IMG/VR virus record: IMGVR_UViG_2870282538_000006
Span: 29,068 to 93,067 of that record
Source: a virus
Taxonomy: Duplodnaviria > Caudoviricetes
Direction: 5' to 3' (one strand)
DNA length: 64,000 nt
Numbering within the stretch: position 1 is the stretch's first letter; each line of letters begins with the position of its first letter. The translations under genes and the position numbers were made by a program. The notes below the pieces were generated by a model. That model saw only the letters and a list, made by a program, of their open reading frames with translations, had not been told where the DNA came from and did no database searches. Below are positions 1,893 through 35,430 of the stretch, one piece after another.

Positions 1893-1939
1893 ATCAATTC
1901 CTCCTTAATCATTTAATCCCCCCGGAGGGGGTAGAATTA

Positions 1940-2338
1940 TTACCCTTTTTTTGCACCTGTAACTACTGGAATCACTTGCTTCTCTTTTTTATCTAAGAGC
2001 ATTTGAGTACGTTCCTTTGATAGCTCTGGAAAATCTGATTCTAGGAATGATCTTACTTGTTCTAAAGTCATATTGTCTTCCGGAACAGGATGTCTATGTC
2101 CTGCGTAATACACTACATATCCAGTACCTACTATGTCTTCAGGAGTTGCTTTCTGTCTTTTTGTTGCAGGCTTTTTAGTCGCTTTAGGCTTTTCTTGTTT
2201 AGGTGTATCAAATAATGCTAGCTGCACTTCTTCATGCGTATCTGGTTGTTTTGGTTCCTCTTGTTCCAATCGTGTGCCAAATTCCTGTTTTTGCTCTTGA
2301 GTCTGTTCATTGTCAAATTCTAATGCCATTATTAACAA
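1940..2338 (-). CDS. PRTRC protein C-like ubiquitin-like protein
   Basis: MTLEQVRSFLESDFPEL motif and C-terminal GAKKG; lies downstream of E2- and E1-like genes. Confidence 0.6.
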   Translation of the reverse strand: MLIMALEFDNEQTQEQKQEFGTRLEQEEPKQPDTHEEVQLALFDTPKQEKPKATKKPATKRQKATPEDIVGTGYVVYYAGHRHPVPEDNMTLEQVRSFLESDFPELSKERTQMLLDKKEKQVIPVVTGAKKG

Positions 2339-2343
2339 CTCCC

Positions 2344-3021
2344 TTAATTCAATATTTTATTTGTCCAGTCAGCAAAAGTCATGCCCATAGGTCGCAACAT
2401 ATCATAGTTAAACTTTTGCGACTGTGATTTTTCAAAAAGCTCTCTTAATGGTTGATTCAATAAGTTGTTTTCACCTTGTTTAAATAAGTGATCGTTGAAG
2501 GGTTGCTTAGCCCAGTTATAAGGAAAACTCTGTAGCTGCACAAGATCATGAATGACACTATTGTCGTGATAGCACATATTTCCCTCACTAAATACATTAG
2601 AAAAAGGGAATCTAAATAACTGGGTTTCTTCTCTTAAGAACCTGTCCTTATATGCCATTAGCATAGAAGCTGAAAGTCTATTATTCTTAACCTTAAAGCA
2701 GAATACCAAGTTAGGAAATGGAACATCCGTAAAAACCGTATTGTGATATGTAACATCATTTCTTGATTCAGGATAAATCATGAATAACAGATCCGTGTCA
2801 TCACTGAGTTTGGCGTATTTAACGGTATTTAGAGGTAAGCTTGGAGATGCAAGTATGACTTCAGGTTCTGGAGGTCTATCCTCAATATCCTCTACTTTTA
2901 CAGATGACACAATATGATTTACGAGATCTTGCATATTCAGATATATGGTTCTTCTTGCGCCAGCCTTTTCAATCTCTACCTTTGCAGGAAGAGTGTCTTC
3001 TAATGTTATTACTGCCTTCAT
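2344..3021 (-). CDS. prokaryotic E2 family D / PRTRC protein B-like
   Basis: VPFPNLVF...LFRFPFSNVFSEGNMC motif with candidate catalytic Cys. Confidence 0.7.
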   Translation of the reverse strand: MKAVITLEDTLPAKVEIEKAGARRTIYLNMQDLVNHIVSSVKVEDIEDRPPEPEVILASPSLPLNTVKYAKLSDDTDLLFMIYPESRNDVTYHNTVFTDVPFPNLVFCFKVKNNRLSASMLMAYKDRFLREETQLFRFPFSNVFSEGNMCYHDNSVIHDLVQLQSFPYNWAKQPFNDHLFKQGENNLLNQPLRELFEKSQSQKFNYDMLRPMGMTFADWTNKILN

Positions 3022-3476
3022 TTGATTGAGTTCACCTCGATTTTCCTCATTTCCTTAAAAATCGTTAAAATGTCTTCTAATAACACACTATATTTAACAT
3101 GATCATTACAAGAAAAGTGAAACTCATTACATCTCCAATCTGATTCCACTTCAACAACATATGAATCCATATAATCTAATGAATTATTAATTGTCTTCTT
3201 TATTGCTTTGTAATATTTCTTTAATGCCCTGGGTAAAGAAAGACTAAAAATAAACAGATAGTTATAATCTTTTGATTGACGAATTTTAAAATATGGATAT
3301 TTGCCTTGCAGCTTTGACATGCTTAATTTGAAACAACCGGAACTTGGAAGTTGGAAATAAGCTATGTCTTCTAAAGGCAATCCCTCATCAAACATAATTT
3401 TTGACATAGTGAAGCAATCCAAAGCCTCTAATAATTCAATTCGTTCATTTTCAGCCATAAGAGGTACCACACTCAA
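3018..3476 (-). CDS. hypothetical protein in PRTRC-like operon
   Basis: ORF overlapping the E2 start. Confidence 0.6.
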   Translation of the reverse strand: MSVVPLMAENERIELLEALDCFTMSKIMFDEGLPLEDIAYFQLPSSGCFKLSMSKLQGKYPYFKIRQSKDYNYLFIFSLSLPRALKKYYKAIKKTINNSLDYMDSYVVEVESDWRCNEFHFSCNDHVKYSVLLEDILTIFKEMRKIEVNSIK

Positions 3477-3532
3477 ATAAACAACTCCTTTCGCTTCTGA
3501 GACTTTAATTCACTAAAAGACTGCACCAAGTA

Positions 3533-3808
3533 TCATATTTGCTCTTGTTGAACTCCATAATGGTCCAAGTCTGCTGGATCAAATTCTGTCTCCACTGAAG
3601 GCCAATATAAGATCAAATCATTTACCCATTCTAACTCTTGCAATGTGAAAGATGACAAAACTTGAGGAGTTGCCTTCTCATTTTCAATAAATAGATTTAA
3701 CACTTCAAGAGTTCTCTCGTGTGAGTCAACAATATCATTTGATAGAGAATTAGCTTTTAACGCTCTATCAACAAAGACAGACAGATCAAATAAATCACTC
3801 ATATTCAA
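3533..3808 (-). CDS. hypothetical protein in PRTRC-like operon
   Basis: ORF overlapping the ThiF stop. Confidence 0.6.
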   Translation of the reverse strand: MNMSDLFDLSVFVDRALKANSLSNDIVDSHERTLEVLNLFIENEKATPQVLSSFTLQELEWVNDLILYWPSVETEFDPADLDHYGVQQEQI

Positions 3809-4622
3809 GCTGCTCCTTTGCTATATAAGTGGGTTTTATCAACATTGTCCTTGCATTAAAATTTGTGTAATGCGATACAATTTCTTTATCATGAAGCAGA
3901 GTATTTAGATACCCCATCATGACTAGAGCTGCTACTTCATTTGTTTGCATTCTTTGAGGAAAATAGACAACTTGTTCACCGCATGCTTGAGTAGGCAACC
4001 TGGTATCTTTATCTTTAAGAATGTTTGGATAAATTGATCCAACCGGCGATAAATACTCTTTCCCTTTTATTTTCACACCACATACCACTTGGCCAGAGTA
4101 TCCGCTCTCTTTACTCCCCTCTTCATCGACAGAATCAATTCCACTATCAATGTAGATGATGGTGGATGTGTTTTGAAATACTTCATGCATGATCTGACGA
4201 GTTGCATTATTATCAACACATCCTAAAAGAATAGGAATATTCCATCGCATATGGTGCCTATTGTTGCGCATAATCTTTTCAATATCTTCACTTGATTCTA
4301 TGTAATCGTCTTTATAGAGAATTGGGATTTCATATGCATTATCATATCTTTCAGCTAATATTTGTGACTTCGGTTGATTTAGATCTTGCTCGATAAAAGG
4401 CTGCCGAAATAGATTAGTTTTTTCAACTCGATCTCCATCAACAATTTGATAATTAAAATAAAATTTGTCATTTTGGCTAGACAAGCTATAAAGGAGCTTA
4501 GATAGCCTTTGAACTAAATATCCTCCATTTCCGCCGGCTCCAATTTGCACAATATTAAAAGAGAAATCGGGCACTATGCAATTATGCAAGGCATCCGACA
4601 ATTTAAATACAGGATGAAACAT
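3795..4622 (-). CDS. ThiF/E1-like adenylyltransferase (PRTRC type)
   Basis: IGAGGNGG, DGDRVEKTNLFRQ, GCVDNNATR motifs. Confidence 0.9.
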   Translation of the reverse strand: MFHPVFKLSDALHNCIVPDFSFNIVQIGAGGNGGYLVQRLSKLLYSLSSQNDKFYFNYQIVDGDRVEKTNLFRQPFIEQDLNQPKSQILAERYDNAYEIPILYKDDYIESSEDIEKIMRNNRHHMRWNIPILLGCVDNNATRQIMHEVFQNTSTIIYIDSGIDSVDEEGSKESGYSGQVVCGVKIKGKEYLSPVGSIYPNILKDKDTRLPTQACGEQVVYFPQRMQTNEVAALVMMGYLNTLLHDKEIVSHYTNFNARTMLIKPTYIAKEQLEYE

Positions 4623-4642
4623 CAGTTATCTCCTTCTCATGC

Positions 4643-5188
4643 TTATTTTTGAAAATCTTCAATTTGTTTAGCAAGCAAACGATTATGCTCAAGAAGTGCC
4701 TGGATCGTTTGCACATAAGAGAGCAATATCTCATAGTCAAGGGCAACATAGTCTTTGTCACTCCCCTTAAAGGTAAAGGGCAAAAAATAATAAGAACGTC
4801 TCATTTGTTTAGCTTCTTCTTCTAACTTATCAAGCCATTCTTTTTTAATTGTTATTTGCTTGTGCCCTTTCGCATCCTTACTACCACGTTCTTTGAATTC
4901 TGCAAGTGCAGCTGTCAGCTCTTCTTCAGTAATCATGTCGCCCAATGCGAAATGAAGAGCGCCTGACGCAACTTGACGGCGAGCTACATCCCTTGCTTTA
5001 TAAACATTTTGATTATAGCGGCGTGTACCTCGATTTTCGAAATCCATTCCTTCTTTTTTCTCTTTGCGAGTAGAGGATCTGGCATTAAGTCCTTTTTTCT
5101 CCTTAATCGGCTTATATAGATTATAATTAAAACATTTAAAGCATGATTTTTCGTGGTTTGAACATTCATCTTGATACGTACAATCCAT
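4643..5188 (-). CDS. PD-(D/E)XK nuclease, probable Holliday junction resolvase, with Cys-rich N-terminus
   Basis: FE...SGA...GD...EFK...ITIKKEWLDKL pattern. Confidence 0.65.
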   Translation of the reverse strand: MDCTYQDECSNHEKSCFKCFNYNLYKPIKEKKGLNARSSTRKEKKEGMDFENRGTRRYNQNVYKARDVARRQVASGALHFALGDMITEEELTAALAEFKERGSKDAKGHKQITIKKEWLDKLEEEAKQMRRSYYFLPFTFKGSDKDYVALDYEILLSYVQTIQALLEHNRLLAKQIEDFQK

Positions 5189-5233
5189 TTTATTTCATCC
5201 CTTTCACATAAAAAAGAGGGAGTATAATCTCCC

Positions 5234-5704
5234 TCAATTTGTCGTGATTGTGTTTTCGATCTTGAGCAAGGAGTTATTAGTAACTTTCGCATCAGCTTTT
5301 GCTTGTAGTGATTTCACCGTAGCTTCAAGCGAATAGTAATAACCAACAAAGAGATCTTCTAAATCAAACAAGTTGACAGTTTCTTCATGCCAAAATTCAG
5401 GGGCGGGGAATTCCCTTGCATATTGAATACCCCCTGCTTTTCTTGCCTGTTCATTTTTGCCTTCATACAGATCTTCTAATACACTTTTTAGAAGACGTTG
5501 AATTGCATCCTTATTCCGACGTGCACGACCAAAGTCATAAAGGGCTTTGGTGTATTCTTCTTCAACACGGACATTAAAAAAGTGGATGGCTGTTTCATTG
5601 ATCTCCGGCACTTTTAAAGATCGGTTTGTTCGTTCATATTCATCTATGAGATTATCCCACATTTTGAAATCCTCACTCAATAAGCGATCCAATACATTAT
5701 TCAT
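5234..5704 (-). CDS. hypothetical helical protein (possibly recombination mediator)
   Basis: ORF; context near resolvase and RecA. Confidence 0.55.
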   Translation of the reverse strand: MNNVLDRLLSEDFKMWDNLIDEYERTNRSLKVPEINETAIHFFNVRVEEEYTKALYDFGRARRNKDAIQRLLKSVLEDLYEGKNEQARKAGGIQYAREFPAPEFWHEETVNLFDLEDLFVGYYYSLEATVKSLQAKADAKVTNNSLLKIENTITTN

Positions 5705-5731
5705 TCACACTCTCTCCTCGCAAGTGTGGAA

Positions 5732-5971
5732 CTAACCTCGCTCATAACGATCACAAAGCCGATTAAGCCTAGCTGCATACAGATTCATTATTTCATGGGA
5801 AACTGATGAAGAGAGAGCAGGAGTTTTTTCTATCTCTTTGTATAACTCCTGTGTAATCTGATTACCTTCATCTTTTGTAGGACACTCTTCATTCTCCATA
5901 AAATCCATAAGTTTCTGAACAATGATATCTGTTTTTGTTACAACGCTTGCAGAAGACGACAATAATGACAA
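5732..5971 (-). CDS. hypothetical protein
   Basis: ORF with SD. Confidence 0.6.
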   Translation of the reverse strand: MSLLSSSASVVTKTDIIVQKLMDFMENEECPTKDEGNQITQELYKEIEKTPALSSSVSHEIMNLYAARLNRLCDRYERG

Positions 5972-5979
5972 CCCCTCTT

Positions 5980-6540
5980 TTATTTTTTCACAATATACAC
6001 GATTGTTCCATCCTTTAGGGGTTGAGTTTGAATTATTTTTGTTGTATCAATTCCAGCTTGTGCCGCGGGAGCTTTATTTAGTTCCGCTTGTAATTGGTTA
6101 ATACGCTCATTAAGTTCCTTGTTCTCGTTTTGAAGCCTTTTGTTTTCCTCGGTTAAATTTTGAAGAATAGCTTCAAAGCGCTTAACGCCTGAGCTTAATG
6201 AACCAACCATTTTGAAAATATCGCCTACCTGTTCTTCAGGTTCTGGAATGCCATAAAAAACAATTTCATTAGACTCTGTTTTTTCCCTTGAAGGAACAAT
6301 CTGAATAACTCCATTAGTACGAAGTTTTTGTACAGCACGGTGTACAGTTGCTTCACTAATGCCAAGCTGCCCAGAAATTTTTCTCATTGATTCTTTCAAC
6401 GTCTTGTTGGCATTACTTTCAGCCTTAGCCTTAATGTAGTCATAAACTTTCACTTCATTTTCACTCAATGAAGCAAGCACCTTTTCTTCAGTAAACATCA
6501 TCCTTGAAACATCTCCTTTTTTCAACCCATCGTAATGCAT
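5980..6540 (-). CDS. winged-HTH regulator with C-terminal coiled coil (true start probably MMFTEEK, ~6501)
   Basis: SMRKISGQLGISEATVHRAVQKL HTH; AAAGGAG SD precedes the internal Met; two operator palindromes upstream. Confidence 0.8.
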   Translation of the reverse strand: MHYDGLKKGDVSRMMFTEEKVLASLSENEVKVYDYIKAKAESNANKTLKESMRKISGQLGISEATVHRAVQKLRTNGVIQIVPSREKTESNEIVFYGIPEPEEQVGDIFKMVGSLSSGVKRFEAILQNLTEENKRLQNENKELNERINQLQAELNKAPAAQAGIDTTKIIQTQPLKDGTIVYIVKK

Positions 6541-6606
6541 TACAATTTATTACAATCTTTCTTTAGTATACATCTATCATAACTTATTTAAACATAATGC
6601 ATTACA
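6531..6606. promoter_or_regulatory. tandem 14-bp palindromic operators (consensus TGTAATGCATTACA)
   Basis: CGTAATGCATTACA 6531-6544 and CATAATGCATTACA 6593-6606; same motif recurs at about 11 sites, almost all intergenic. Confidence 0.8.
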
Positions 6607-6799
6607 AAATTTCAAGGATTATTGATGCGTTCGTCAAAAATAGTCAAAATTCTTCAAAATTCTTCACTTTTCATCAGATTTTGGTGCTTTATTTTATATA
6701 ATTGAGTATATAGTCTTAGTCCTTTGGTTGTCAATTGATTTATAGACTAAAACTTTAGACTTCTTTCGACTCAATTCGACATTCAAATGCATTTCATCA

Positions 6800-7072
6800 T
6801 CATGAAAATATCTCAAGTTTTCTCCTGCGTTCTCTTTCAAGTTGCTTTTTCTGTCTGTCTCTCTCCACAGCTTCTTCGTCTACTGCTCCTATGCCACGTA
6901 GTTCAGCAATTTTCATGATTTCGTCAATGTTGTATACACGATAATTGTTTTTTGGGTTTCTTCTTGCAGGTGGAATTAATCCATTTTCCTCCCAATACAT
7001 GATAGTATCCCGATGAACATCTAGCATAAGGGCAGCTTGATGCATAGTATAATCTTTTTTTCGTTCTGTCAT
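6800..7072 (-). CDS. MerR-family HTH DNA-binding protein
   Basis: YTMHQAALMLDVHRDTIMYWEENGLIPPARR..NNYRVY. Confidence 0.9.
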   Translation of the reverse strand: MTERKKDYTMHQAALMLDVHRDTIMYWEENGLIPPARRNPKNNYRVYNIDEIMKIAELRGIGAVDEEAVERDRQKKQLERERRRKLEIFS

Positions 7073-7075
7073 TAA

Positions 7076-7699
7076 TCATGGACTCCTTTGCAATTTGTTG
7101 TCCACCTTTTGCTTTGCAAGCATTATATGATTGCAATACTCTTCATACAAGTTCTTATCTGTCATGGCATAAATGGTCCGATACGTTGTAATCATTTCGA
7201 ACTTATCAAGAAGATTGGTTGTGTATCCGGCCATATTTATATTTGGATCAAAGAATTTACCTACGTCATAACCTAAAGAAATAATTACAGATGGCTTCAC
7301 ACATAAAATTTCTGATAACAAGTGTGTGTAACACATTTCAGGTGTACTTGTTGTTTCACACTTAGACAGCGAGGTGAAATAAATATCTTCAAGTGAATAA
7401 TTGGCCCAAGTTAATGTATTTACAAGAAGCTGACCTTCCTGAGTCTGAAAATCAACATCGCTTGGAGTTTCTCCAATTACCATAACGGGAGCATCAAAAT
7501 TGCCGAGTTCTAATGGCTTGATGAATTTCTTGTTATTACAAGCAAAGCAATTGTGGATGCTTGTTTTAATTTCAAAAGGCACTACTTGCTTTTCAAAAAG
7601 TTCCTGAGTCAAAATCTGATCATAGAAACCTGGTTCAAATTTATGTTTAGACTCTTCTTTAACTTCAAAAGGTAGGGTGTTATTTTCCGATATAGTCAA
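7076..7699 (-). CDS. uracil-DNA glycosylase family 4-like protein (degenerate)
   Basis: CxxC, GNFDAPVMVIGETP, IYFTSLSKC, IISLG motifs; motif B reads TYRT rather than TYHP. Confidence 0.75.
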   Translation of the reverse strand: MTISENNTLPFEVKEESKHKFEPGFYDQILTQELFEKQVVPFEIKTSIHNCFACNNKKFIKPLELGNFDAPVMVIGETPSDVDFQTQEGQLLVNTLTWANYSLEDIYFTSLSKCETTSTPEMCYTHLLSEILCVKPSVIISLGYDVGKFFDPNINMAGYTTNLLDKFEMITTYRTIYAMTDKNLYEEYCNHIMLAKQKVDNKLQRSP

Positions 7700-7732
7700 T
7701 TCCTTTTCTCCTCTCCTTCAAAAGAGAATAGA

Positions 7733-8908
7733 TTAATCTATAATCCCTTCGGACTCCATCAGCATGTCATCTTTTTCTTGCTCATCCTCTGAATTATCCT
7801 CTTGAATCATTTGAGCGTCTTTAGGTATACGGCCTTGAACAATGCTATTTGTATATTCAAATAAGGCGGGACTTTGTTTTAGAGCTGCTTCGACTGTTTC
7901 TTTCCCTCTCCATTTCAGTTCATTCCCAGCTCCATCCTTATAAGGCTCATCATGACTTTCACCATAATAGTAATAAGCTCCAGCACGCTTTATGATATCC
8001 ATATCCATAGCAACATTCATGATGTCTTTAATTACATCTACACCAGTATCCCAGTAGTAATCAAATTCTGTCTTAGTAAATGGTCGGGATACTTTATTTT
8101 TCTTTACAGTGACTTTCATTGTTTGACCAAGAAACACATCACCTTTTTTTATTTCACTACGACGCACATCCAGACGCACAGAGGAATAAAATTTTAATGC
8201 ACGGCCACCAGGAGTATGCTCAGGATTTCCGTACATTACTCCTACTTTTTCACGGAGCTGGTTAATCATAATGACCAAACAATTCATTTTTGATGCGTGT
8301 TTGGCAATTACAGGGAGCATTTGTGAGTTCAGCCTAGCTTGCAGGCCAACATGATTATCTTCAGCCGAGCCATCTATAATTTTTTTGGGAACAAATGATG
8401 GCAAAGAATCTCCAATAATTAATCCAACTTGCCCAGACAATATTAAAGTAGTCATCAGATCATATGCCTGTTCTCCACATTCAGGCTGTGAAATTAACAT
8501 ACCTGTTTCTTCACTAATGTCTACTCCTAGGCTTTGAGCATGAAATGGATCAAGAGCATTTTCAGCATCAATAAAGACAGCTTTTTTTCCATAGAAAACA
8601 TGAGACTTTAAACGTGCATGTTTTTGAAATTCGGCTACAACTTTAAGAGCAAGTGTTGTTTTACCAGATGATTCGGGTCCATAAATTTCCACCAACCTAT
8701 TATATGGCAGTCCGCCAATACCTAGAGCAAAGTCTAAGCTTGGAATACCTGTACTAACAGGTTGAATCTTTACTGTCTGCTCACCTTCAAAAGCATAGAT
8801 TGATCCTTCGCCCATTCGAGTATTAATCATTTTCATTATATCTTTATTAGACATTTGTTCTTTTGATATTTCAATATCATTATTTTTCTTAGTCTTTGTT
8901 TTTGCCAT
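7733..8908 (-). CDS. recA: RecA recombinase
   Basis: GPESSGKTT, INQLREKVGVMYGNPE, GGRALKFYSSVRLD. Confidence 0.97.
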   Translation of the reverse strand: MAKTKTKKNNDIEISKEQMSNKDIMKMINTRMGEGSIYAFEGEQTVKIQPVSTGIPSLDFALGIGGLPYNRLVEIYGPESSGKTTLALKVVAEFQKHARLKSHVFYGKKAVFIDAENALDPFHAQSLGVDISEETGMLISQPECGEQAYDLMTTLILSGQVGLIIGDSLPSFVPKKIIDGSAEDNHVGLQARLNSQMLPVIAKHASKMNCLVIMINQLREKVGVMYGNPEHTPGGRALKFYSSVRLDVRRSEIKKGDVFLGQTMKVTVKKNKVSRPFTKTEFDYYWDTGVDVIKDIMNVAMDMDIIKRAGAYYYYGESHDEPYKDGAGNELKWRGKETVEAALKQSPALFEYTNSIVQGRIPKDAQMIQEDNSEDEQEKDDMLMESEGIID

Positions 8909-9287
8909 TTATGTCACTCCACCCATTGTATGTCTCAATAAATGATTGCGATTCGTCCTGAAGTTGTTTTATTTGTCTCAAGACATTTAACTTATCATCA
9001 TTGATTTCATTTTCAGGAAGATCTTTAATCTCTTTTGTAATTTGTGCTCCACGATTATTTAAAGCTTTTGATAAGCATTGCGTAAAGACTATAAGCATTT
9101 GATCTGGAATTTCTTTTTCTGTTTTGAGTAGTTTTAAGCATTCTTCAAGAGTGTCTTTAAACATCTTAATTTTTGCTGTATTTTGAGGCATTCCTCGGTT
9201 TATGTAATAGTCATAAATACCAATCATAAACCTTGATAATGAATCAGCAGGGCTAGGTTTTCTTCGACTCATACAATATACCACCAT
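8889..9287 (-). CDS. hypothetical protein
   Basis: ORF between ssb and recA. Confidence 0.7.
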   Translation of the reverse strand: MVVYCMSRRKPSPADSLSRFMIGIYDYYINRGMPQNTAKIKMFKDTLEECLKLLKTEKEIPDQMLIVFTQCLSKALNNRGAQITKEIKDLPENEINDDKLNVLRQIKQLQDESQSFIETYNGWSDINGKNKD

Positions 9288-9329
9288 TCTGTATCCATAA
9301 AATCAGCAAAGGGGAAATCCCCCTTTGCC

Positions 9330-10037
9330 TTATTGTTGTGGAAAGTTTCCAGGAAAACCTCCATTTGGTGCTCCAACTCCCGCCGGCGCTCCAAATCCTC
9401 CTGGCGGGTTTGGTGGAAATCCGTTTTGTGGAGTTCCATTTTGTGGCGGAGCTGGTGTGAATCCTTGCGGCTGCCCCTGAGGTTGCCCTTGAGGCGGTTG
9501 TGGTGGGAAACCACCTTGCGGCTGTCCTTGAGGTGGTTGTTGATATCCACCATTATTAAACTGGCCAGTAGGCTGCTGATGCCCTCCGCCTTGGCTTTGT
9601 TGTTGATTAGATCCACCATCAAGACCCACTATCTTTGATACTTTGATCGTTGGGTAATAACTGTAGCTGCCATCCTTTTTTGTTTGCCGTAATTCGGGAA
9701 CACCTTCAATAAACACTTTACGACCTTTTCCGCAGTGGTTTACCAAATAGTTATGTTTACTGTCTTGTCCTTCATTTCCCCAAACTTCAATAAACCAAAA
9801 ATCAGTTTTATCGCTAGTGTGATTTACTGCAATTGAAGAAGAAGCAACTTTAGAATTGTTGATTACTTTTGACTCTGGATCTTTCGTAATACGTCCAATA
9901 AGCTGAATTTTCACGTGATTATCGTATCCTGAATTATTATAACCATTTTGATTGCCTTGGTTGTTATTTGGTTGAAATCCACCTTGAGGTTGTTGTTGAA
10001 ATCCACCTTGATTTGCGTATGGGTTATTCATAGCCAT
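9330..10037 (-). CDS. ssb: single-stranded DNA-binding protein with Q/P/G-rich tails
   Basis: LIGRITKDPE...SIAVN...TDFWFIEVWG...GKGRKVFIEG OB fold. Confidence 0.92.
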   Translation of the reverse strand: MAMNNPYANQGGFQQQPQGGFQPNNNQGNQNGYNNSGYDNHVKIQLIGRITKDPESKVINNSKVASSSIAVNHTSDKTDFWFIEVWGNEGQDSKHNYLVNHCGKGRKVFIEGVPELRQTKKDGSYSYYPTIKVSKIVGLDGGSNQQQSQGGGHQQPTGQFNNGGYQQPPQGQPQGGFPPQPPQGQPQGQPQGFTPAPPQNGTPQNGFPPNPPGGFGAPAGVGAPNGGFPGNFPQQ

Positions 10038-10100
10038 ATTTGTTTCCTCCTAGTTTTGTAAATGTGCTTTCTTTCAAAGTGCCCCGGATGGGGCGGGCCT

Positions 10101-10298
10101 TTAAGCATAATCTAACAGATAAAAAATAGCTTTTTCTGCTCTTTGAATCTCTTTCACTTTTAAAATATGAATATTTTCATTACCTGAAAGGTGAACTTGA
10201 AGGCACTCGCCTTCTTTTATTTCTCGATTGGTAGGATACAAAAAGTCATGCTCACTTCCGTCTGGGAAGACTAAAACATTTCTCATTGATCTCCACAC
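10101..10298 (-). CDS. hypothetical protein
   Basis: ORF. Confidence 0.6.
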   Translation of the reverse strand: MWRSMRNVLVFPDGSEHDFLYPTNREIKEGECLQVHLSGNENIHILKVKEIQRAEKAIFYLLDYA

Positions 10299-10642
10299 TC
10301 GTCATTTGGAATACATTTCAAAGAATATGCGAACACTGAAACATCTTTCTTTACTTCGCCTTTGATCGACCTTGAAACGATATTAACAAACCCTTCAAAA
10401 AACACATAATTGCCTTGTACAACAAGATCTTTGAACTCTGTCATAAAAGCTTCAGATACAAGAACATTCAGTGTTCCAATTGAATCATCTATCGTTACAA
10501 TATAAGTTGAATTCTCTTTATTGAATGGAGGTGTAATATTAATTATTTTCCCACCAACAGTGACATGCTCTTCATGAGCTGCATTTAACCGCACTTCTTC
10601 TGATAAGTGAGTAGTGTGTTTCTTGATGTCAGCCAGTTCCAT
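10283..10642 (-). CDS. stand-alone OB-fold resembling the C-terminal OB domain of DnaE
   Basis: VTVGGKI...VTIDDSIGTLNVLV...VFFEG. Confidence 0.65.
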   Translation of the reverse strand: MELADIKKHTTHLSEEVRLNAAHEEHVTVGGKIINITPPFNKENSTYIVTIDDSIGTLNVLVSEAFMTEFKDLVVQGNYVFFEGFVNIVSRSIKGEVKKDVSVFAYSLKCIPNDECGDQ

Positions 10643-10916: not shown

Positions 10917-10919
10917 CTC

Positions 10920-11213: not shown

Positions 11214-11254
11214 TCTAAATTCTGACCAACCCGAGTTTGTTCCCTTACTTTTGG

Positions 11255-11647: not shown

Positions 11648-11722
11648 TTTCTCCCCAAGTTTATCATGAATCTAAGTGACTTTGCAATGCATTACATTTA
11701 ATAATGTCCTTTTCTTATTTTC

Positions 11723-12913: not shown

Positions 12914-12950
12914 TTTATCCTCCTATCAACAATCTGATCCCTTGCTTGTT

Positions 12951-13367
12951 TTATTCAATAATATAAAAGTCTCCATAGAGCAACTCATCCATAGTGATAG
13001 CTTCAATAAGGCCAATAGATGATAAGAGATTGGGTAAAAAGGCTTCACTCTTTTCAAATTGATTTGTATTGAATGGATGTTCTGATCCTTGATAAACCAC
13101 TTTTACCTTTTTCCCTGCCTTGTATGCCTCTAAAAAATCATTGAGAGATACTTTCTTCTGTGTTTCTTGAAGTTTAACTCTAGTCTTGAATAGTAGGTCA
13201 TGTGATACTGATAATGGCTCCCCACTACGTTTATTAATAAGATGTCCATCTTTGACTTTTAAAGTCATTCCATAATAATTATTGTCAGTTACTACGTTAA
13301 ATTCTTTCCCCTCATAGTCTTTTTCGAATAGATTGATTACTGGAATAAGTTCTTTATTGTTAGTCAT
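12951..13367 (-). CDS. hypothetical phage protein
   Basis: ORF with GGGAG SD. Confidence 0.65.
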   Translation of the reverse strand: MTNNKELIPVINLFEKDYEGKEFNVVTDNNYYGMTLKVKDGHLINKRSGEPLSVSHDLLFKTRVKLQETQKKVSLNDFLEAYKAGKKVKVVYQGSEHPFNTNQFEKSEAFLPNLLSSIGLIEAITMDELLYGDFYIIE

Positions 13368-13437
13368 TTTATTTATGTCTCCCTTATTAATAAATTGAAA
13401 TCACTATAACGCCCCGGATGGGGCTTACATGTAAAAG

Positions 13438-18740: not shown

Positions 18741-18805
18741 TGCAACCTCCCCTAGAAGGGAAACGCTCTGGGCTTAATGCCTGTTTATAGTCGCCCAGAC
18801 GACTA
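18741..18805 (-). ncRNA. pistol self-cleaving ribozyme
   Basis: UAGUCG-UCUGGG-CGACUA-UAAACAG-GCA-UUAAG-CCCAGA-GCGU-UUCCC-UUCUA-GGGGA-G-GU-UGCA: P1, pseudoknot, AAA linker, GCGU, P3, GU cleavage site and P2 all present. Confidence 0.92.
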
Positions 18806-29390: not shown

Positions 29391-30101
29391 ATGCCGGAAG
29401 AAAAATTTTGGAAGATAACAGATTTCGCCCAGAAAATATCTAAAGACATGCAGCTTAAGCTGAATGATTCCAAAGGAGTTCATTACAACACGGTTGATAA
29501 ATGGTTTAAAAAACTCGAAAGTTCAGGAATTCACTATGTGAATAGAGTTGCCGGAGAAAAAGTATATGATGAGCTAGACTTGAAAATAGGGCACATCATA
29601 TTTGAAAGACGACGTGCTAATTGGAGTTTAGATGCTATATTTGAAGCTCTTCCTCAAGTTGTTGAATTACGTCCAATGAATCACGAGGAGACAAGTGATT
29701 CATCACAAGTGATGGATGAGACACAAATGATGGAGAAATTCAGAAGAGAATTCGGAGCTGAATTTATTAAGCTGAGAGAAAACATTCTGGAAGAGGCGAG
29801 AACATTTATTGAAAATGAAACCCAAAAAATTAAAAATCAATTGCCACCTCCAGAAAACAAAGAAGAGAAGAAAAGGGCAAAGAGAGATGATTTTGTCACT
29901 AATATGAGGCTGAGTATGCAACTTGATAAAGAAGCTGCTGAGGCTTGGAGTAAGCAGCCAGAATCAGTCAGAATGAAAAAAGTAGGCTGGTTCAGAAAAG
30001 AAGAAGATTTAGTTGCCAGAGAACAGTTTATTCGTGACTACAAAATATCTAATATGTCTCGTATTGCAAAAGAGGCTTACGAAGACGACAACAACTCGTG
30101 A
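29391..30101 (+). CDS. RacA/pSK1 Par-like HTH + coiled-coil protein (DUF3967-like)
   Basis: MerR-like HTH (TVDKWFKKLE..G...YDELDL), central coiled coil, C-terminal KKVGWF. Confidence 0.7.
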   Translation: MPEEKFWKITDFAQKISKDMQLKLNDSKGVHYNTVDKWFKKLESSGIHYVNRVAGEKVYDELDLKIGHIIFERRRANWSLDAIFEALPQVVELRPMNHEETSDSSQVMDETQMMEKFRREFGAEFIKLRENILEEARTFIENETQKIKNQLPPPENKEEKKRAKRDDFVTNMRLSMQLDKEAAEAWSKQPESVRMKKVGWFRKEEDLVAREQFIRDYKISNMSRIAKEAYEDDNNS

Positions 30102-30405
30102 TTCGTACATAAGTCAAAAAAGCTCGCAGAAATGTGGGCTTTTTTGATGCTTAAAAACAGGTCTATTTAAAACCCCCGGATGGGGGTTCATTAACGAGCA
30201 ATTTTGTGTTTCAAATTAATGCTTCGAAAATCAGCACATTTTGTGCGTCAAAATTGGCCATTTTTATTGACCTAGGAGAGAAAGTTTTTTATGATTGATC
30301 TAACAACATGTATACGGAACAGAGGAAATGCCATATGCTATACCATCTAAGTGTTTTTAAGGTGGTGATAGCATCATGTCTGAAAGGGAAAAGGGGAATG
30401 AGAAC

Positions 30406-30552
30406 ATGAATGCTCCAGTTCTTGAATCATCCAAAGAACGAATTCAACGTCTACTTGCCACAGGAGCTGTTCGGGGATTTAGAAGTGATGATGACGGCAA
30501 AATTTTAATTAATCCTAACGATCCAAAAGAAAAAGAATGGATGGAAGATTAA
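30406..30552 (+). CDS. small putative antitoxin (48 aa; alternative start 30376)
   Basis: MNAPVLESSKERIQ...NPNDPKEKEWMED ends 1 nt before the toxin start. Confidence 0.6.
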   Translation: MNAPVLESSKERIQRLLATGAVRGFRSDDDGKILINPNDPKEKEWMED

Positions 30553-30553
30553 T

Positions 30554-30898
30554 TTGCCGCCAAAACCAGGAGAAATCTACGAAGCGTTTTTTCAATATGA
30601 TGACGGGACCGGTGGAAAATACCGGCCCGTTCTTGTTGTGGAAACAGATAGCGGACTTTTTGTTGCCGTCGCTATAAAAGTCACTACATCTGAACCAAAA
30701 AAAGGTTATACACATCACATACATACAAGCAGAATTGAGATAAAAGATTGGAAAGCAGCAGGCTTAAGAGATCCATCTTGGGCTCAATGCAGTACATTCG
30801 AAGTATTCAAATTCGTGCAATTGAAAAAATACATAGGCAGACTTACTTCTGATGATTTTCAAAACATATATGAAGAATATCTGAAGTATACTTCTTAA
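30554..30898 (+). CDS. PemK/MazF-family toxin
   Basis: KPGEIY...GKYRPVLVV...KVTTS...GL..PS. Confidence 0.85.
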   Translation: MPPKPGEIYEAFFQYDDGTGGKYRPVLVVETDSGLFVAVAIKVTTSEPKKGYTHHIHTSRIEIKDWKAAGLRDPSWAQCSTFEVFKFVQLKKYIGRLTSDDFQNIYEEYLKYTS

Positions 30899-31272
30899 AG
30901 AGTAGCCGAAGGCTGCTTTTAATTTTGCTTAGACAATAACATAACAACAAGGTGAGTAATTGGTTTTCTGGCAATGTTCATAAGCTTCCAGTTTAGTATA
31001 TTCATTATGATGTTAAAGAACTTATTTACTTGGATATTCGTTGGACTGATTATTTGGAATAAGAAGATATTCATGGTATCTAGGATTAAAAGAGGCTACA
31101 AGCCTCTTTTTTTGCGAAAAAATGACATTTATGTTGAATGATGTATTTTTATGTGTTAATTTGAATAAGAAAGGAGGGTTGGAAGATAAATACTTTTGAT
31201 TCTATCTAAAATTCGGATCATTTGCATCAAGACAAGTCACCCAGTTTAAAACAAACTTGAAAGGGTGTAAAT

Positions 31273-32007
31273 ATGAAAAAAATAGTTTTGTCATTGATCG
31301 CATCTGGTTTTTTGGTGTCTGGAATTCTTCCTTCGAGCTTAGAGAGCGCTAGAGCGGAGTCAAAGATTGATCAGCAAAATGTCGACTCTGATATCAAAGA
31401 CGTTGTCTTTATTGAACAAAGCGATGGAAAGCTTGAATACACATACACCAAAGGGAATGAGAAATTTAAGAATGTTGAATACTTCAACGAGGACCAGACT
31501 GGTTTGAGAAGTCACATCTATAAGTTAGATAAGAATACTGGCGAATATCAAAAAATTGATGAGCTGGTAAGTCAGTTGTCTTTTGATAAAAAAGAAGTCT
31601 CTATTGAGTCGCTAGTGACGAAGGAGAAAGATGTAATGGTAATACAATCAAACCAGAACACTGCGTCACTCGACGAGCTTGAGTTTTCAATTCAAGCAAA
31701 GGATAAATGGACATACCACGGAACTGTTTACGGAGACAATAAGCCTAAAAAGTGGACCATCGGCGTTATCGGAATTTCAGTTGCAGGGATTACAAAATTG
31801 CCCGCAGTAGCAAAGATTGTTATCAATATAGCAAACATGACTTATCAATTGGCAACCGACGTATTTTATTATAAACAGGTGTTGTATAAAAAAGGGCCAA
31901 AATTAAGACCTTCATTTAAATATGTGACGACATTCTATTCTGATAAGGCAAGAAAGAAAGTCATCAAAAAGAACGTTGTCAGCTACGCCAACTCAGGCTA
32001 TCGTTAA
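31273..32007 (+). CDS. secreted protein with basic, partly hydrophobic C-terminus (bacteriocin-like)
   Basis: Sec signal ending ARA; C-terminal Lys-rich region with hydrophobic hairpin. Confidence 0.7.
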   Translation: MKKIVLSLIASGFLVSGILPSSLESARAESKIDQQNVDSDIKDVVFIEQSDGKLEYTYTKGNEKFKNVEYFNEDQTGLRSHIYKLDKNTGEYQKIDELVSQLSFDKKEVSIESLVTKEKDVMVIQSNQNTASLDELEFSIQAKDKWTYHGTVYGDNKPKKWTIGVIGISVAGITKLPAVAKIVINIANMTYQLATDVFYYKQVLYKKGPKLRPSFKYVTTFYSDKARKKVIKKNVVSYANSGYR

Positions 32008-32038
32008 GAAAAAAGGGAACAGTGAGAGCTGTTCCCTT

Positions 32039-32263
32039 TTAGTATTTCTGGACAAGAATGTACAGAGAGTATAGGACTGCAAGGAGAAGAATTATCCAAA
32101 GGTACATGATACGTGAATGTCTGTTTTTGAAAATAAAATAGCATACGGTCAAAAACAAAAGGAGTATCCATGCGAGGTAAGGGAAAAATGTGCCCTGAAA
32201 GACGATAGCAATGACTCCAACAATTGACAGCAAAGCGAACAGGATATTCTCAAAAAGTTTCAA
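32039..32263 (-). CDS. small 3-TM membrane protein (possible immunity)
   Basis: Hydrophobic; convergent with the secreted protein; GGAGG SD. Confidence 0.7.
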   Translation of the reverse strand: MKLFENILFALLSIVGVIAIVFQGTFFPYLAWILLLFLTVCYFIFKNRHSRIMYLWIILLLAVLYSLYILVQKY

Positions 32264-32513
32264 ACAGCACCCTCCAACTTTGTTAATGTTTATTCGTATA
32301 CTATATCATGATTTTCTGCATTGATGAATAAGATTAGGGTTTTCTTATTCATGTTTCGTATATCGCTCACTGTCCAATCTTATCAGCACCATTAGCTTCA
32401 TCAGAGAAATAATGACCACTTGTGATGCATCATAATTTTGTAACATGTGATCACACTATTGGCAAAGTAGATCGAGTCGCTTTTAACCCATATAAATGAT
32501 CCTTTCAAAATGA

Positions 32514-32840
32514 TTAATCATGTGGGTCAAAAAAATATTGAACTTCCTTCATAACATCCTTGTAAAATTGCTCACGAGTTTTGTCAGCAACCTCAAGTGA
32601 ATTGGTAATTAGTCTTTGAGCTCCAGATGGCAAGTAAGAAGTTTCAGGTCTTAGATCTTCAACAGTATCAACTAATGATGCGAAATATGAGATCAACAAC
32701 CAATATGGCTCTCTAATTCCAAAGCATTCATGGCAGTAGGGGAGTGACACAGAAGTAATAGGAGAAATGAATATGCCTGCCATTACTTTTTTTCTGCATA
32801 CACTACATAAAATGTCTACTTTCTCTATATGAGCTGTCAT
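32514..32840 (-). CDS. hypothetical protein with two CxxC motifs
   Basis: CSVC...CHEC. Confidence 0.6.
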   Translation of the reverse strand: MTAHIEKVDILCSVCRKKVMAGIFISPITSVSLPYCHECFGIREPYWLLISYFASLVDTVEDLRPETSYLPSGAQRLITNSLEVADKTREQFYKDVMKEVQYFFDPHD

Positions 32841-33068
32841 ACATTACACATCCTTTTTTATGCTGAGTCTTAAAGTGAAAATATTCATCCAAATGTGATT
32901 GATCCTAGCAGTCATCAACAATGAGATAGATCCTCCTAATATTAAGAAATAAATAATGTAACGCCATTCATTACATATCCTATCGTCAATGGTTGATCTT
33001 TTTTTTAATAAAAAAACCCCAGCTGGGGCTGTGAACTGACCCGTTAAAATGAGACTTAGAAAAAACAC

Positions 33069-33929
33069 CTATGCTGCCTGTCCCCTGTATTCCAGTGGGG
33101 ACAGGTAGTTTAATTTTGCCTGAATTCGTACATGATTATATCGATACATGTATTGATTTACAATTTGTACTACTTTAGAATTGGATATAGATGCTCTACT
33201 TTGAGCGTTAAATCCTTCCGACTTTAGCGAGGAGTGAAAGGATTCAATGACGGCATTATCATGGCAGTTTCCTTTTCGAGACATGCTTGTGGTAATGCCT
33301 TTTTCTTTGGCCAAATTCTGATATGCATGTGAAGTATAGACAGATCCCTGGTCGCTATGAAGAAGTAACCCTACTGGTTTACGTAATTCTACAGCTTCCC
33401 TCAATGTGTCTAATACTAGGTTAATATCTTGGCTCGTACCTATTTTGTAAGCCACTATTTCGTTGTTATATAAGTCCATAATCGTTGATAAATATAACAT
33501 AGTCGAGCCATAAGGTAAGTAGGTAATGTCGGTTACCCATTTTTCATTTAATCGGCTTGCTTTAAAATTACGATTGAGAGTGTTCGGCACAATAATATTA
33601 CTCTCACCACAAATGTACTTTTGTCGCTTCTTCTTAACTTGACACTGAATCTCAAACTTTTGCATAATTTTTTGTACAGTTTTGCGGTTTACATTTATCC
33701 CATACTTTCTGTTTAAGATGGATTTAATTTTACGATGACCATAGTGATAGAAGTTTTTCTTACACAGCTTGATTACTAGCTCTTCTAATGAAGTTAGCTC
33801 AACTTTTTTATACTTCTTTTTCCAACGGTAATATGTTGACTTAGGTATGCCTAATACTCCAAGAATATCAATTATTTTAAAAGTGGCTGAGAGTTCTTCT
33901 ACAACTTGGACAATGACTCGTGGCTCCAA
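33069..33929 (-). CDS. IS3 OrfB DDE transposase
   Basis: WVTDITY, HSDQGS, SRKGNCHDNAVIESF. Confidence 0.95.
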   Translation of the reverse strand: MEPRVIVQVVEELSATFKIIDILGVLGIPKSTYYRWKKKYKKVELTSLEELVIKLCKKNFYHYGHRKIKSILNRKYGINVNRKTVQKIMQKFEIQCQVKKKRQKYICGESNIIVPNTLNRNFKASRLNEKWVTDITYLPYGSTMLYLSTIMDLYNNEIVAYKIGTSQDINLVLDTLREAVELRKPVGLLLHSDQGSVYTSHAYQNLAKEKGITTSMSRKGNCHDNAVIESFHSSLKSEGFNAQSRASISNSKVVQIVNQYMYRYNHVRIQAKLNYLSPLEYRGQAA

Positions 33930-34231
33930 CTCCTTTCGATCTCCTGGTACTTTTTTATAATTGCCAATTGAGCCTCTAGCTGTTTATTCTTTAGTTTTAA
34001 TTCTTCTAGCTCACTCATTTCCTCCGATTCTTTACCGTAGGAATATTGTTTTCCAACTTGTTGCGAAAATCGATAGGTTTGGCCTGTTTTGTACCATCGC
34101 ATCCATGTTTTAATTTGAGTCTTATTTTTTATCCCCAGTTGTTCCATTATTTCTTTGTTTGTCATTCCAGCTTGTTTCATTTTAATTACTTCCCATTTTA
34201 CTTCTTCTGCGTAATGTACTCTTGTGCCCAT
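33899..34231 (-). CDS. IS3 OrfA (HTH); fused to OrfB by -1 frameshift at A AAA AAG (33950-33956)
   Basis: HTH plus leucine zipper; -1 frame joins OrfB. Confidence 0.93.
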   Translation of the reverse strand: MGTRVHYAEEVKWEVIKMKQAGMTNKEIMEQLGIKNKTQIKTWMRWYKTGQTYRFSQQVGKQYSYGKESEEMSELEELKLKNKQLEAQLAIIKKYQEIERSWSHESLSKL

Positions 34232-34320
34232 AGAAAAACACCCTCCTAAGAATCATATTGTATTAATACGATTCAGGGGGTGTTTTTTCCTTGTCTCATT
34301 TATTTGGGTCTCTCCAGCTG

Positions 34321-34761
34321 TTATTTCTGCGCTTTTAAGTTTGAGATAAGATCACCGAAATATTCAGGAAGGTTAATTCCATTGATAGCTGGATTAGGAA
34401 CTTTCTCAAACCCATTCTTAATAGCAAAAGAATAAGCTTCTTCAGTCTGAACGCTCTCAATCATAATGGCTTCATAGCCATTCTTTTCAGCATAATCCTT
34501 CAAGTAGGAGAGAAGCTTAGTACCGTAGCCTTTTCTTTTGTTTTTAAATTCAATCCTGGCAATCACTAATTTCTTCTCAAAAGTATTGAGTCTCAACATC
34601 AACTCATTGTGGGCTCCTTCAATAAAAAGCCTATTCATACTTATGTATGATGAAACTTCTTCACCGGAATCCTCTTTAAATAGATCGATGATCTCTTTGA
34701 ACTCCTCTATATCCACTTTTGTACTAGTCATGATATGTCCTCCAATCATAAATTGACTCAC
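34321..34761 (-). CDS. GNAT acetyltransferase (start probably 34731)
   Basis: KRKGYGTKLL..., A..F..KNGF. Confidence 0.82.
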   Translation of the reverse strand: MSQFMIGGHIMTSTKVDIEEFKEIIDLFKEDSGEEVSSYISMNRLFIEGAHNELMLRLNTFEKKLVIARIEFKNKRKGYGTKLLSYLKDYAEKNGYEAIMIESVQTEEAYSFAIKNGFEKVPNPAINGINLPEYFGDLISNLKAQK

Positions 34762-34929
34762 GAAAACGCCCCGGATGGGGCTACACTACTATGTAGTGTA
34801 ATAATATCATATACAGTCAACATTGTTCTGGTCTGAATAAAATAAATACGAACAAAATATGTCTAATTTGTGACACTTTTGTCCGAAGGTAGAAATTCCC
34901 CAGGTTTTGGCGGTATATAAAGATAGTGA

Positions 34930-35430
34930 ACTATTTACGTGAACGATGTGAAAGAAAACTCTTATTGTCAGACTACGTTCACAATATTGGAATTATTAGT
35001 TAGTGAAAAGAAAAGGATGATCAAATAGGAAGTCTACCTTGAACAAGAAAGAATTCACATCTTGAAGGCTCCGCAGTGAAACCTTCAATGAAAACAATCT
35101 GCTAACAAGATAGACACACCAATTGATATCACAAGGGGGTACAACGGCGGGCACGTATGTCCATTTTTATGGACCGCACACGCTAAGTCATAACCTTTTA
35201 CAAAAAGGAAAGATCAAAACCTCTATACATTTGGGAATGCGGTTGGTCATGTATAGAAAACTTTCTTATTCCGCCGGCGAAACCACCCGGAGGGGGGGGC
35301 GCAGCAATCTTGCTGAGCAGAACACGACTAACCGCGGCCGAGAGAAGTAAGACAACCTCATTAGAAAAGGAATCCTCGACAGAAACGACACCCACGGAAG
35401 CCGGAGGCTTAGTACGCATTCTAAGTCAAA
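34930..35430 (+). ncRNA. candidate large pseudoknotted non-coding element downstream of RNAP
   Basis: Multiple 6-10 bp complementary pairs, no credible ORF (see findings). Confidence 0.5.

Follow-up and report, generated by a model that had tools for sequence, protein, structure and literature searches.

Hairpin-plus-tail elements in the leftward arm of a Bacillus phage-plasmid: candidate promoters for its own QDE-1/YonO-class RNA polymerase

Among the closest described systems, phage N4 offers promoters that are read as template-strand hairpins. Its virion RNA polymerase (RNAP) uses a template-strand hairpin with a GGA loop together with an A run (PMC4496689, PMC13037366). According to passages of these sources, a GCGGAGC mini-hairpin is the binding target of the mini-vRNAP (PMC13037366), extrusion depends on the closing G:C pair and on the 5'G and 3'A of the loop, positions -11, -10, -8 and +1C are recognised, and four template As act as a ruler between stem and start (PMC4496689). 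An earlier note on the DNA analysed here, a 64-kb stretch of the virus record IMGVR_UViG_2870282538_000006 (referred to as the window), had pointed to this precedent and proposed that eight small hairpins upstream of leftward genes may be promoters for a YonO-like RNA polymerase encoded in the same stretch. The present analysis followed these hairpins and the polymerase through the window, the complete replicon and related replicons.

In the Bacillus thuringiensis phage 0305phi8-36, 14 phage-specific 21-bp promoter candidates have been known since 2007 and were proposed as middle promoters for the RdRP-like gp99, the phage having no sigma factors (Hardies, Thomas, Serwer 2007; PMC2147016); in the searched text of that paper no hairpin is mentioned for the 21-bp motifs, and the word occurs once, on terminators. 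The promoter of SPbeta YonO (PyonO) was left undefined by Forrest et al. 2017 (PMC5467207), and we found no later literature that defines it. The Thermus phage P23-45 encodes two-barrel polymerases, gp96 and gp64, with AT-rich and GC-rich linear motifs that were mapped by ONT-cappable-seq and ChIP-seq (PMC10770324). At the RNA level, the rrn leaders of B. subtilis carry a small 5' hairpin that is followed immediately by the boxA-like AUGAUCUUUGAAA, which binds NusB (2026, PMC13753749).

The hairpin-plus-tail family of the leftward arm

A virus record of 93,067 bp contains the window as its right two thirds. This record, listed as a provirus, belongs to a circular plasmid and is collinear, with no indels at four test points, with positions 119,383-212,449 of NZ_CP035189.1 (W01), a 212,467-bp circular plasmid of Bacillus licheniformis. 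W01 is a phage-plasmid, as its capsid, terminase, baseplate and ParM/Alp7A-like genes show. Its rightward arm of ~117 kb holds the virion (late) genes, and its leftward arm of ~90 kb, which is opened by the polymerase gene, holds helicase, SSB, primase and many small genes. Near-identical or related replicons occur in B. licheniformis, B. paralicheniformis (W03, NZ_AP025341.1) and B. halotolerans (W02).

All eight hairpins of the earlier note were found where it had placed them, but they did not hold together as one set. Six (1919, 10081, 13411, 27506, 30171 and 34768) form a single family, while those at 35286 and 35398 lack the conserved tail of the others. Positions are those of the window, tails are given in leftward sense, and ORF stands for open reading frame:

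1909-1931, minus strand: element 1, CCCCC-GGA-GGGGG at 1919-1931 (+ reading) with a 10-nt tail at its left; 8 nt past the stop of ORF 1940-2338 and 26 nt before a start at 1892
10071-10094, minus strand: element 2, GCCCC-GGAT-GGGGC at 10081-10094 with tail ACTTTGAAAG; 6 nt past the stop of ORF 10101-10298 and 43 nt before the SSB start at 10037
13401-13424, minus strand: element 3, GCCCC-GGAT-GGGGC at 13411-13424 with tail GTTATAGTGA; 43 nt before a start at 13367
27496-27519, minus strand: element 4, GCCCC-GGAT-GGGGC at 27506-27519 with tail ATTTAGATGA; 49 nt before an ATG at 27456 and ~120 nt downstream of a strong leftward terminator
30161-30188, minus strand: element 5, AACCCCC-GGAT-GGGGGTT at 30171-30188 with tail TTAAATAGAC; a two-way terminator lies ~25 nt farther left
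34758-34781, minus strand: element 6, GCCCC-GGAT-GGGGC at 34768-34781 with tail GTTTTCGTGA; 36 nt before the GNAT-like start at 34731, the first copy downstream of the polymerase gene
35286-35296, no strand assigned: CCC-GGA-GGG, not a member; tail absent, extended stem with one mismatch, inside the non-coding stretch that follows the polymerase gene
35398-35410, no strand assigned: AAGCC-GGA-GGCTT, not a member; no tail, in the structured non-coding stretch after the polymerase gene

Read as leftward mRNA, a family member consists of a hairpin and, after the G:C pair that closes GCCCC/GGGGC, the conserved tail RTTTARRTGA, whose TGA sits 8-11 nt past the stem. On the + strand, the template for leftward transcription, the loops read c-GGA-g or c-GGAT-g, with a fourth loop base in five of the six, and most copies have a short A run beside the stem on this strand, as had been claimed. 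The strand of the GGA loop had also been given correctly: GCCCCGGATGGGGC occurs four times and CCCCGGA(N0-1)GGGG six times in the window, always on the + strand, and each was found 0 times in 100 shuffles. Of the perfect G+C-rich hairpins of the 93-kb record (29 rows), those of the GGA/GGAT/GGAG class are conspicuous. A seventh copy lies outside the window, AAAGCCCC-GGAG-GGGGCTTT, ahead of the DnaG-like primase gene. In W02 hairpin and tail are retained although the flanks diverge.

The exhaustive scan of the whole replicon for strand bias, which the earlier note had called for, gave strict one-strand polarity: counted as forward:reverse, the complete replicons hold 7:0 (W01), 7:0 (W02) and 0:6 (W03) copies, the polymerase gene being inverted in W03. 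The copies are all found in the first 52 kb downstream of the polymerase gene. As had been noticed for the rightward arm, 0 copies were found in the late arm of the window, and the same is true of the ~117-kb late arm of the whole 212-kb replicon.

The two remaining hairpins were rejected as members, the one at 35286 for its missing tail and the mismatch in its extended stem, the one at 35398 for its missing tail and its ortholog in B. halotolerans (W02), which holds the stem by a sense-strand G.U. This G.U points to an RNA helix, and the 35398 hairpin is probably such a helix of a non-coding element. At the 13411 hairpin, the W03 ortholog is a natural variant, GCCGC-ATCC-GGGGC, with a stem-breaking G.G and with tail and gene intact.

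Five copies stand 26, 43, 43, 49 and 36 nt ahead of a start codon, in keeping with the claimed ~25-50 nt. The distance to the preceding stop spans 7-353 nt, and a stop codon lies 6-14 nt before the hairpin in four window copies and in five of the seven in the replicon. The genes that follow code for SSB, the DnaG-like primase, a protein with a borderline GNAT match and several proteins with no assigned function; of the labels previously given to them SSB is supported, GNAT is borderline and 'gam-like' found no support.

9330-10037, minus strand: SSB gene after element 2 (Pfam SSB 4.9e-09; phrog_44 3.7e-14)
27639-27662, minus strand: canonical intrinsic terminator with a 10-bp stem and T run, closing the unit upstream of element 4
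34321-34731, minus strand: GNAT-like gene after element 6 (Acetyltransf_1 21.0 bits against a cut-off of 20.7 bits, borderline; GNAT in the annotation of the plasmid record)

Because of the terminator at 27662-27639, the gene at 27456 calls for a start signal of its own in the interval between the two. In W04, a B. thuringiensis plasmid, a canonical terminator (109707) likewise lies directly upstream of two elements. Since the distance to the next start is narrow, the distance to the previous stop wide and the terminators lie upstream, the element goes with the downstream gene.

The polymerase and the hairpin families beside its relatives

The candidate reader of these elements is encoded directly upstream of the first of them:

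35528-39373, minus strand: gene of a predicted QDE-1/YonO-class two-barrel RNA polymerase, a 1281-aa ORF from TTG, annotated from 39307 in the plasmid record

The protein matches the Pfam family RdRP PF05183 with 24.5 and 25.9 bits, a narrow margin above the curated cut-off of 23.8 bits. Its DxDGD metal-binding loop reads GGADFDGDK, with D768, D770 and D772 invariant in 10 of 10 aligned relatives. The structure model of residues 251-1281 is of moderate confidence (pLDDT 63.9, pTM 0.57); a fold search with it returned 19 PDB matches at E<=0.001, all of them QDE-1 or RDR2 (probability 1.00, TM 0.28-0.43), and a sequence-profile search of the PDB with the polymerase gave 0 matches. Because of the PF05183 match, the DFDGD loop and the QDE-1/RDR2 fold matches, the enzyme was assigned to the two-barrel QDE-1/YonO class. 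The predicted polymerase appears only remotely like SPbeta YonO itself. A tblastn search of the phage collection with the polymerase found no match, and a profile search of SPbeta with the window enzyme found nothing; homologs of 55-69% identity exist.

Sigma70_r2 had no match in any of five replicons (W01, W02, W04, G003, G004), its control matching in 10 of 14 genomes. The T7-like RNA_pol family (PF00940) had no match in the same five, a weak negative since its control was silent, and a search of the large virion-arm ORFs (4 proteins) returned no polymerase family. Sigma-70-like sites were not enriched in window positions 1-40,000 over shuffles (61 against 69.4 expected, 52 against 71.7 expected). 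Since neither a sigma factor nor a T7-like polymerase was matched and sigma-70-like sites are not enriched, the QDE-1-class enzyme is the only recognisable transcription protein of these replicons. The position of its gene, directly upstream of the first element, is that of T7-like layouts, from which a pairing of element and polymerase may be suggested but not proved.

The relatives comprise replicons whose polymerase is 94.7% (W02), 34% (W04) and 30% (W05, from Paenibacillus) identical to the window enzyme, and IMG/VR contigs of ~200 kb; G003 has 215,870 bp. In a loop census, perfect G+C-rich hairpins were counted blind to the motif, the replicons being oriented with the polymerase gene forward. 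The hairpin-plus-tail design recurs in five other polymerase-carrying lineages, in which stems co-vary while loops and tails are lineage-specific. In W04 a TCC loop occurs in 11 of 49 G+C-rich hairpins, with stems including GCGAC, CCGAC, TCCAC, TCCCC, GCCCC, CTCCC and ATCACCC and the tail N-TGT-N3-4-TGAA. G003 has the TCC loop in 8 of 47 hairpins, or in 12 when 4-bp stems are admitted (stems TCGCC, CCGCC, GCCCC, GTCCC, AACCC; tail RTTTGGTGAAAA). G004 carries four copies of CC-TGTC-GG, and G005/W05 three copies of a TAAC loop with the tail GGGGGCTTTTTGAA. In phage 0305phi8-36 a TCGC loop occurs in 17 of 123 hairpins, and the outer stems co-vary; with 4-bp stems there are 22 sense rows (2 in the terminal repeat, ~3 without tail) against 2 antisense, and ~18 sense-only hairpins have the form NNN-CGT-TCGC-ACG-NNN with the tail TGTTTTGTA.

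Throughout these lineages the polymerase gene lies upstream of the copies and runs in their direction, and a ribosome site follows the copies at 20-50 nt. The earlier note's statement that stems covary is weakly borne out within the window, where the stems are GCCCC (four times), CCCCC and AACCCCC; real covariation is found in the relatives only. When sites with closing pair and loop were counted blind to pairing, the next four pairs were all Watson-Crick in 11 of 57 sense against 1 of 30 antisense sites in W04; for G003 the counts were 8 of 33 (sense) and 0 of 26 (antisense), for 0305phi8-36 they were 20 of 122 and 0 of 67. The link between stem and loop holds for a single strand. Motif, polarity and placement were seen directly, as was the recurrence of the element, with co-varying stems, beside relatives of the enzyme. 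The observation holds for six of the eight hairpins and gains greatly from the comparison with relatives.

Very probably the ~18 sense-only hairpins of 0305phi8-36 are the published 21-bp candidates. The window family resembles them in having a ~21-bp repeat in short non-coding gaps, co-oriented with the middle-type genes that follow, beside a PF05183, RdRP-like polymerase and no sigma factor found (PMC2147016). It differs in its loop (ATCC/TCC instead of TCGC), its closing pair (C:G instead of T:A) and its tail. On these sequence features the window element is the same kind of design as the 0305phi8-36 candidates and is not the same motif. Two hairpin-plus-tail elements of 0305phi8-36 (NC_009760, at ~211.8 and 208.0 kb) flank the polymerase ORF, one close upstream and one immediately behind; feedback of the enzyme on its own gene may occur there.

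With the N4 early promoters P1-P3 the window elements share the short G+C-rich inverted repeat, the template GGA loop and the C:G closing pair; the template A run that stands by the stem in N4 has its counterpart in the short A run of most window copies (PMC4496689, PMC13037366). The fourth base aside, the window copies thus show the N4-type combination of a 5-7 bp inverted repeat, a 3-nt loop, template 5'G..A3' and C:G closing. The N4 loop has 3 nt, whereas some loops of the window lineage carry a fourth base. The three N4 promoters lie at one genome end and serve a virion-injected enzyme, whereas the window replicon has 7 copies over 52 kb before replication-type genes. The N4 enzyme is T7-like and that of the window has a predicted QDE-1 fold; that the two are unrelated, as had been asserted, agrees with fold matches to QDE-1 or RDR2 throughout and with the missing PF00940 match (control silent). 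By analogy, the window element appears to work like an N4 promoter and is not a member of the N4 system. An N4-type promoter further has a hairpin that extrudes under supercoiling and is stabilised by SSB, with the transcription start a fixed distance downstream. The P23-45 polymerases are comparable as phage-encoded two-barrel enzymes with promoter motifs of their own, and differ in that the word 'hairpin' occurs 0 times in the searched text of PMC10770324.

Promoters or other signals

We regard it as an evenly balanced proposition that the six window elements, seven in the replicon, are promoters of the phage-plasmid's own QDE-1/YonO-class RNA polymerase. In this respect the proposal of the earlier note gains from the polarity, the placement before genes, the recurrence, the loop identical to that of N4 and the failure to find a sigma factor or T7-like polymerase, and it loses two of its eight hairpins. 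The first part of the candidate promoter would be the 5-8 bp G+C-rich inverted repeat, in which the template (+) strand can fold into a mini-hairpin whose G..A loop (GGA or GGAT/GGAG) has C:G as closing pair. The second part would be the T-rich tail with its fixed RTGA ~8-11 nt past the stem, probably holding the start point and followed by leaders of ~15-40 nt. Transcription would then start at the motif, and this enzyme would recognise a DNA hairpin rather than a duplex. We propose that the host polymerase makes the phage enzyme first, that the phage enzyme then turns on the middle units (SSB, primase and others) and that the late genes use another signal.

The loops favour a structure on the template strand. 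In the family and its relatives they read GGA, GGAT/GGAG, GACA, GTTA and GCGA there, with G first and A third or last, and C:G is the closing pair in four of the five. DNA hairpins closed by C:G are exceptionally stable when the loop is a GNA triloop or a GABA or GTTA tetraloop, and the stable-loop classes covered in passages of PMC13037366 are GNA, GBAA, GABA, GTTA and GAAB; the stability that had been ascribed to such loops is thus supported there for GNA closed by C:G, while the d(cGNABg) class named beside it is not confirmed by these passages. A small test points the same way. Two sure members with full tails and ribosome sites, GCCCC-TCC-GGGAC in G003 and CCGAC-TAAC-GCCGG in G005, carry a sense-strand A.C, that is a template G.T, and no member has an internal sense G.U; in these tiny numbers, the A.C cases favour a template-strand hairpin.

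In its widest form the proposal is that QDE-1/YonO-class phage polymerases independently reached the N4 solution, reading extruded template-strand mini-hairpins, that the loop 'code' (GGA/GGAT, GACA, GTTA, GCGA) diverged with the polymerase lineages and that the six elements are working middle promoters. We advance this tentatively and lean slightly against it. If it were true, two unrelated polymerase folds would have arrived separately at promoter recognition by template-strand structure, and Bacillus would gain a compact orthogonal polymerase-promoter pair. In any case the family is a concrete short candidate signal for the single-chain two-barrel phage polymerases, whose promoter was left open for YonO in 2017, and the locus and its relatives offer natural variants of stem, loop and tail.

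The promoter reading has more support than any other, yet it draws wholly on sequence patterns and might equally well prove wrong, and several results weigh against it. YonO is, like the window enzyme, a single-chain two-barrel phage RNA polymerase, but has 839 instead of 1281 aa and is barely alignable with it: hhalign gave a probability of 5.6%, with DFDGD aligned with DNDGD. YonO, the one enzyme of this class that has been tested, reads the SPbeta late operon from a single start upstream of yonK (PMC5467207), at position 2225998 of B. subtilis 168. In SPbeta no hairpin family is repeated: its 29 hairpins show no enriched loop family, and the 50-100 kb part lacks CCCGGA(N)GGG. One hairpin of the yonN-yonK gap, TGGAGA-TTCC-TCTCCA followed by GTGTGAA (record 60549-60564), was tried and rejected: Goe11 and SPbetaL1 keep the stem with altered loop and tail, and phi3T has a sense G.U. 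From its sequence we read it as part of a conserved non-coding RNA there and not as support for promoters. Two polymerase-bearing relatives, G001 and G002 (80 and 77 kb examined), have no repeated loop family by the criteria used. Since all relatives were found through the polymerase, its co-occurrence with the elements is confounded by common descent. GCGA closed by T:A, as in 0305phi8-36, does not figure among the stable loops that the passages of PMC13037366 cover.

Within the window, copy 30171 lies between rightward genes with no leftward gene after it and, if a promoter, would yield only a short RNA. Copy 34768 is preceded by a conserved extended -10-like TGnTAT(T/G)AT (~34803-34815), so the hairpin there may simply be transcribed by the host enzyme, as it probably is in addition to any role of its own. 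Generic DNA folding gave the hairpins ordinary energies (z -1.0 to -2.5, with -5.5 to -7.8 kcal/mol), a result that weighs in neither direction; its parameters are not known to include a mini-hairpin bonus.

Wider searches added little on co-occurrence. A metagenome scan returned only relatives of <=30% identity over long stretches, and the loop census of 78 such loci (~20 kb each) gave nothing clear, AT-rich hairpins being at chance level. The exact 14-mer hairpin had at least 118 single matches in unrelated viral contigs and one locus with 2 copies, which looks like chance and is uninformative on co-occurrence with the polymerase.

The main rival places the signal in the leftward mRNA, as a leader element of the form GCCCC-AUCC-GGGGC plus tail that acts after transcription by the host polymerase. 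It could be an antitermination reloading site, in which hairpin and boxA-like tail bind NusB-S10 and a phage protein perhaps binds the loop, or a processing or stability determinant that protects the 5' end. We consider this improbable but still a serious contender, and if it held, a phage-borne multi-copy leader signal would also be of interest. The sense-only orientation and the leader position 26-49 nt before the start fit it, as do copy 34768 behind its -10-like box and a Pistol ribozyme in the arm, by which RNA processing occurs there. The B. subtilis rrn leaders give the precedent (PMC13753749): they, too, have a small hairpin directly followed by a U-rich tail of the ...UUUGAAA type, which the tails of W04 (AUGUUUUUGAA) and of window copy 10081 (ACUUUGAAAG) resemble, but they act as RNA on the host polymerase, and no fixed loop is reported for them in the passages concerned. 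The tails were scored against the last ten letters of the B. subtilis boxA-like sequence, with leaders as background. W04, G003 and G005 scored ~1 standard deviation above the leader background, whereas the window lineage stayed at background (mean 5.0 against 5.1 in W01, 4.9 against 5.1 in W02), although copy 10081 contains the boxA-like CUUUGAAA. The hosts are all Bacillus-like, yet the tails vary from one phage lineage to the next, and for a host NusB site this is unexpected; other RNA-level roles would be less affected by such points. Conservation is highest in the loop, which follows the G..A rule on the opposite strand, and the two A.C members together with the lack of internal G.U argue against an RNA helix. 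No copies lie in the long late arm, where processivity matters most, and the stop codons that abut some hairpins (0-2 nt) would bring terminating ribosomes that melt them.

Alternatively, the element could be read as duplex DNA, by the host polymerase redirected through a phage factor or by a dimeric regulator on the inverted repeat, with no extrusion. We judge this quite unlikely. An inverted repeat ahead of genes would suit it; Hardies et al. 2007 could not exclude a host polymerase directed to the 21-bp motifs (PMC2147016), and gp96 and gp64 of P23-45 use plain AT-rich or GC-rich motifs (PMC10770324). Stems that vary freely while keeping their pairing are less easily reconciled with it, as are A:T pairs that extend the stems and loops of 3 and 4 nt within one replicon, by which half-sites would be shifted. 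Further, the asymmetric loop is fixed and strand-specific, and no sigma factor was found.

That the elements are weak intrinsic terminators or attenuators closing the preceding gene is very unlikely. The nearby stop codons would agree with it, and so would the A/T-extended stems and short U run of copy 30171 and of the out-of-window copy, AAAGCCCC-CUCC-GGGGCUUU as RNA. The earlier note had seen no U-tract: under a terminator-like rule of 5 T in 8, five of the six window copies fail and 34768 alone qualifies. Moreover, the tail has fixed non-U positions, the loop is conserved in sequence, which terminators do not need, the spacing follows the next gene and not the previous one, and canonical terminators already stand just upstream of elements (window 27662-27639; W04 109707).

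A DNA signal outside transcription, such as priming hairpins for a DnaG-like primase polarised with the direction of replication, finds some encouragement in the strict polarity, in the similar mini-hairpins at G4-type and ssiA priming sites (PMC13037366) and in the replicon-encoded DnaG-like primase directly behind one copy, but is likewise very unlikely, since a priming signal has no reason to keep a narrow distance to the ribosome site or start codon in all lineages and the copies are restricted to one gene arm.

Neighbouring features and minor observations

The head of the late arm is marked by two features:

44457-44608, plus strand: tRNA-Asn and tRNA-Met
44902-46065, plus strand: ParM/Alp7A-like actin gene (ALP_N 5.7e-25)

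Outside the window, the virion arm of W01 has a run of giant ORFs of 1980-2403 aa at 13.7-66 kb, one of which contains a weak, sub-threshold stretch resembling RNase H or the PolB exonuclease.

Next to element 6, a perfect 8-bp palindrome, TACACTAC-ATA-GTAGTGTA (34782-34800), abuts the hairpin. W02 and W03 keep the palindrome, there with the loop TAT, and the -10-like box upstream; by sequence, the two look like a host-type promoter with operator. Copy 30171 adjoins a rightward island in the leftward arm (30376-30898, plus strand) with a small ORF and, by annotation of the plasmid record, a PemK/MazF-family toxin gene.

The Pistol self-cleaving ribozyme is full-length and lies in an intergenic gap of the leftward arm at 18741-18804 on the minus strand (75.4 bits, gathering score 34.5); the polycistronic RNA of this arm is probably cut there. 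A skipping-rope RNA at 25759-25843 (67.4 bits) lies on the plus strand, opposite to the leftward arm. The same RNA family is annotated beside hup/yonN of the SPbeta-like phage vB_BsuS-Goe14, in the gap with the YonO start region. In SPbeta itself the 1.7-kb yonN-yonK gap contains a DUF3800-VIII RNA (47.5 bits, SPBc2 record 59409-59474, minus strand), and among SPbeta-like phages this gap is conserved and structured. SPBRE, a first guess for a repeated SPbeta-type element, was dropped, being a 15-bp duplex operator of MrpR at SPbeta promoters and not a co-varying hairpin (PMC10516654).

An IS3-family insertion sequence occupies 33032-34316, just downstream of the GNAT-like gene. RNA data comprised four of 24 listed runs (X1, X2, X11, X17) as Logan contigs, with a depth of ~2-6 over the stretch; one RNA-library contig joins 33027 to 34317 with the insertion sequence left out, so that an IS-free form exists.

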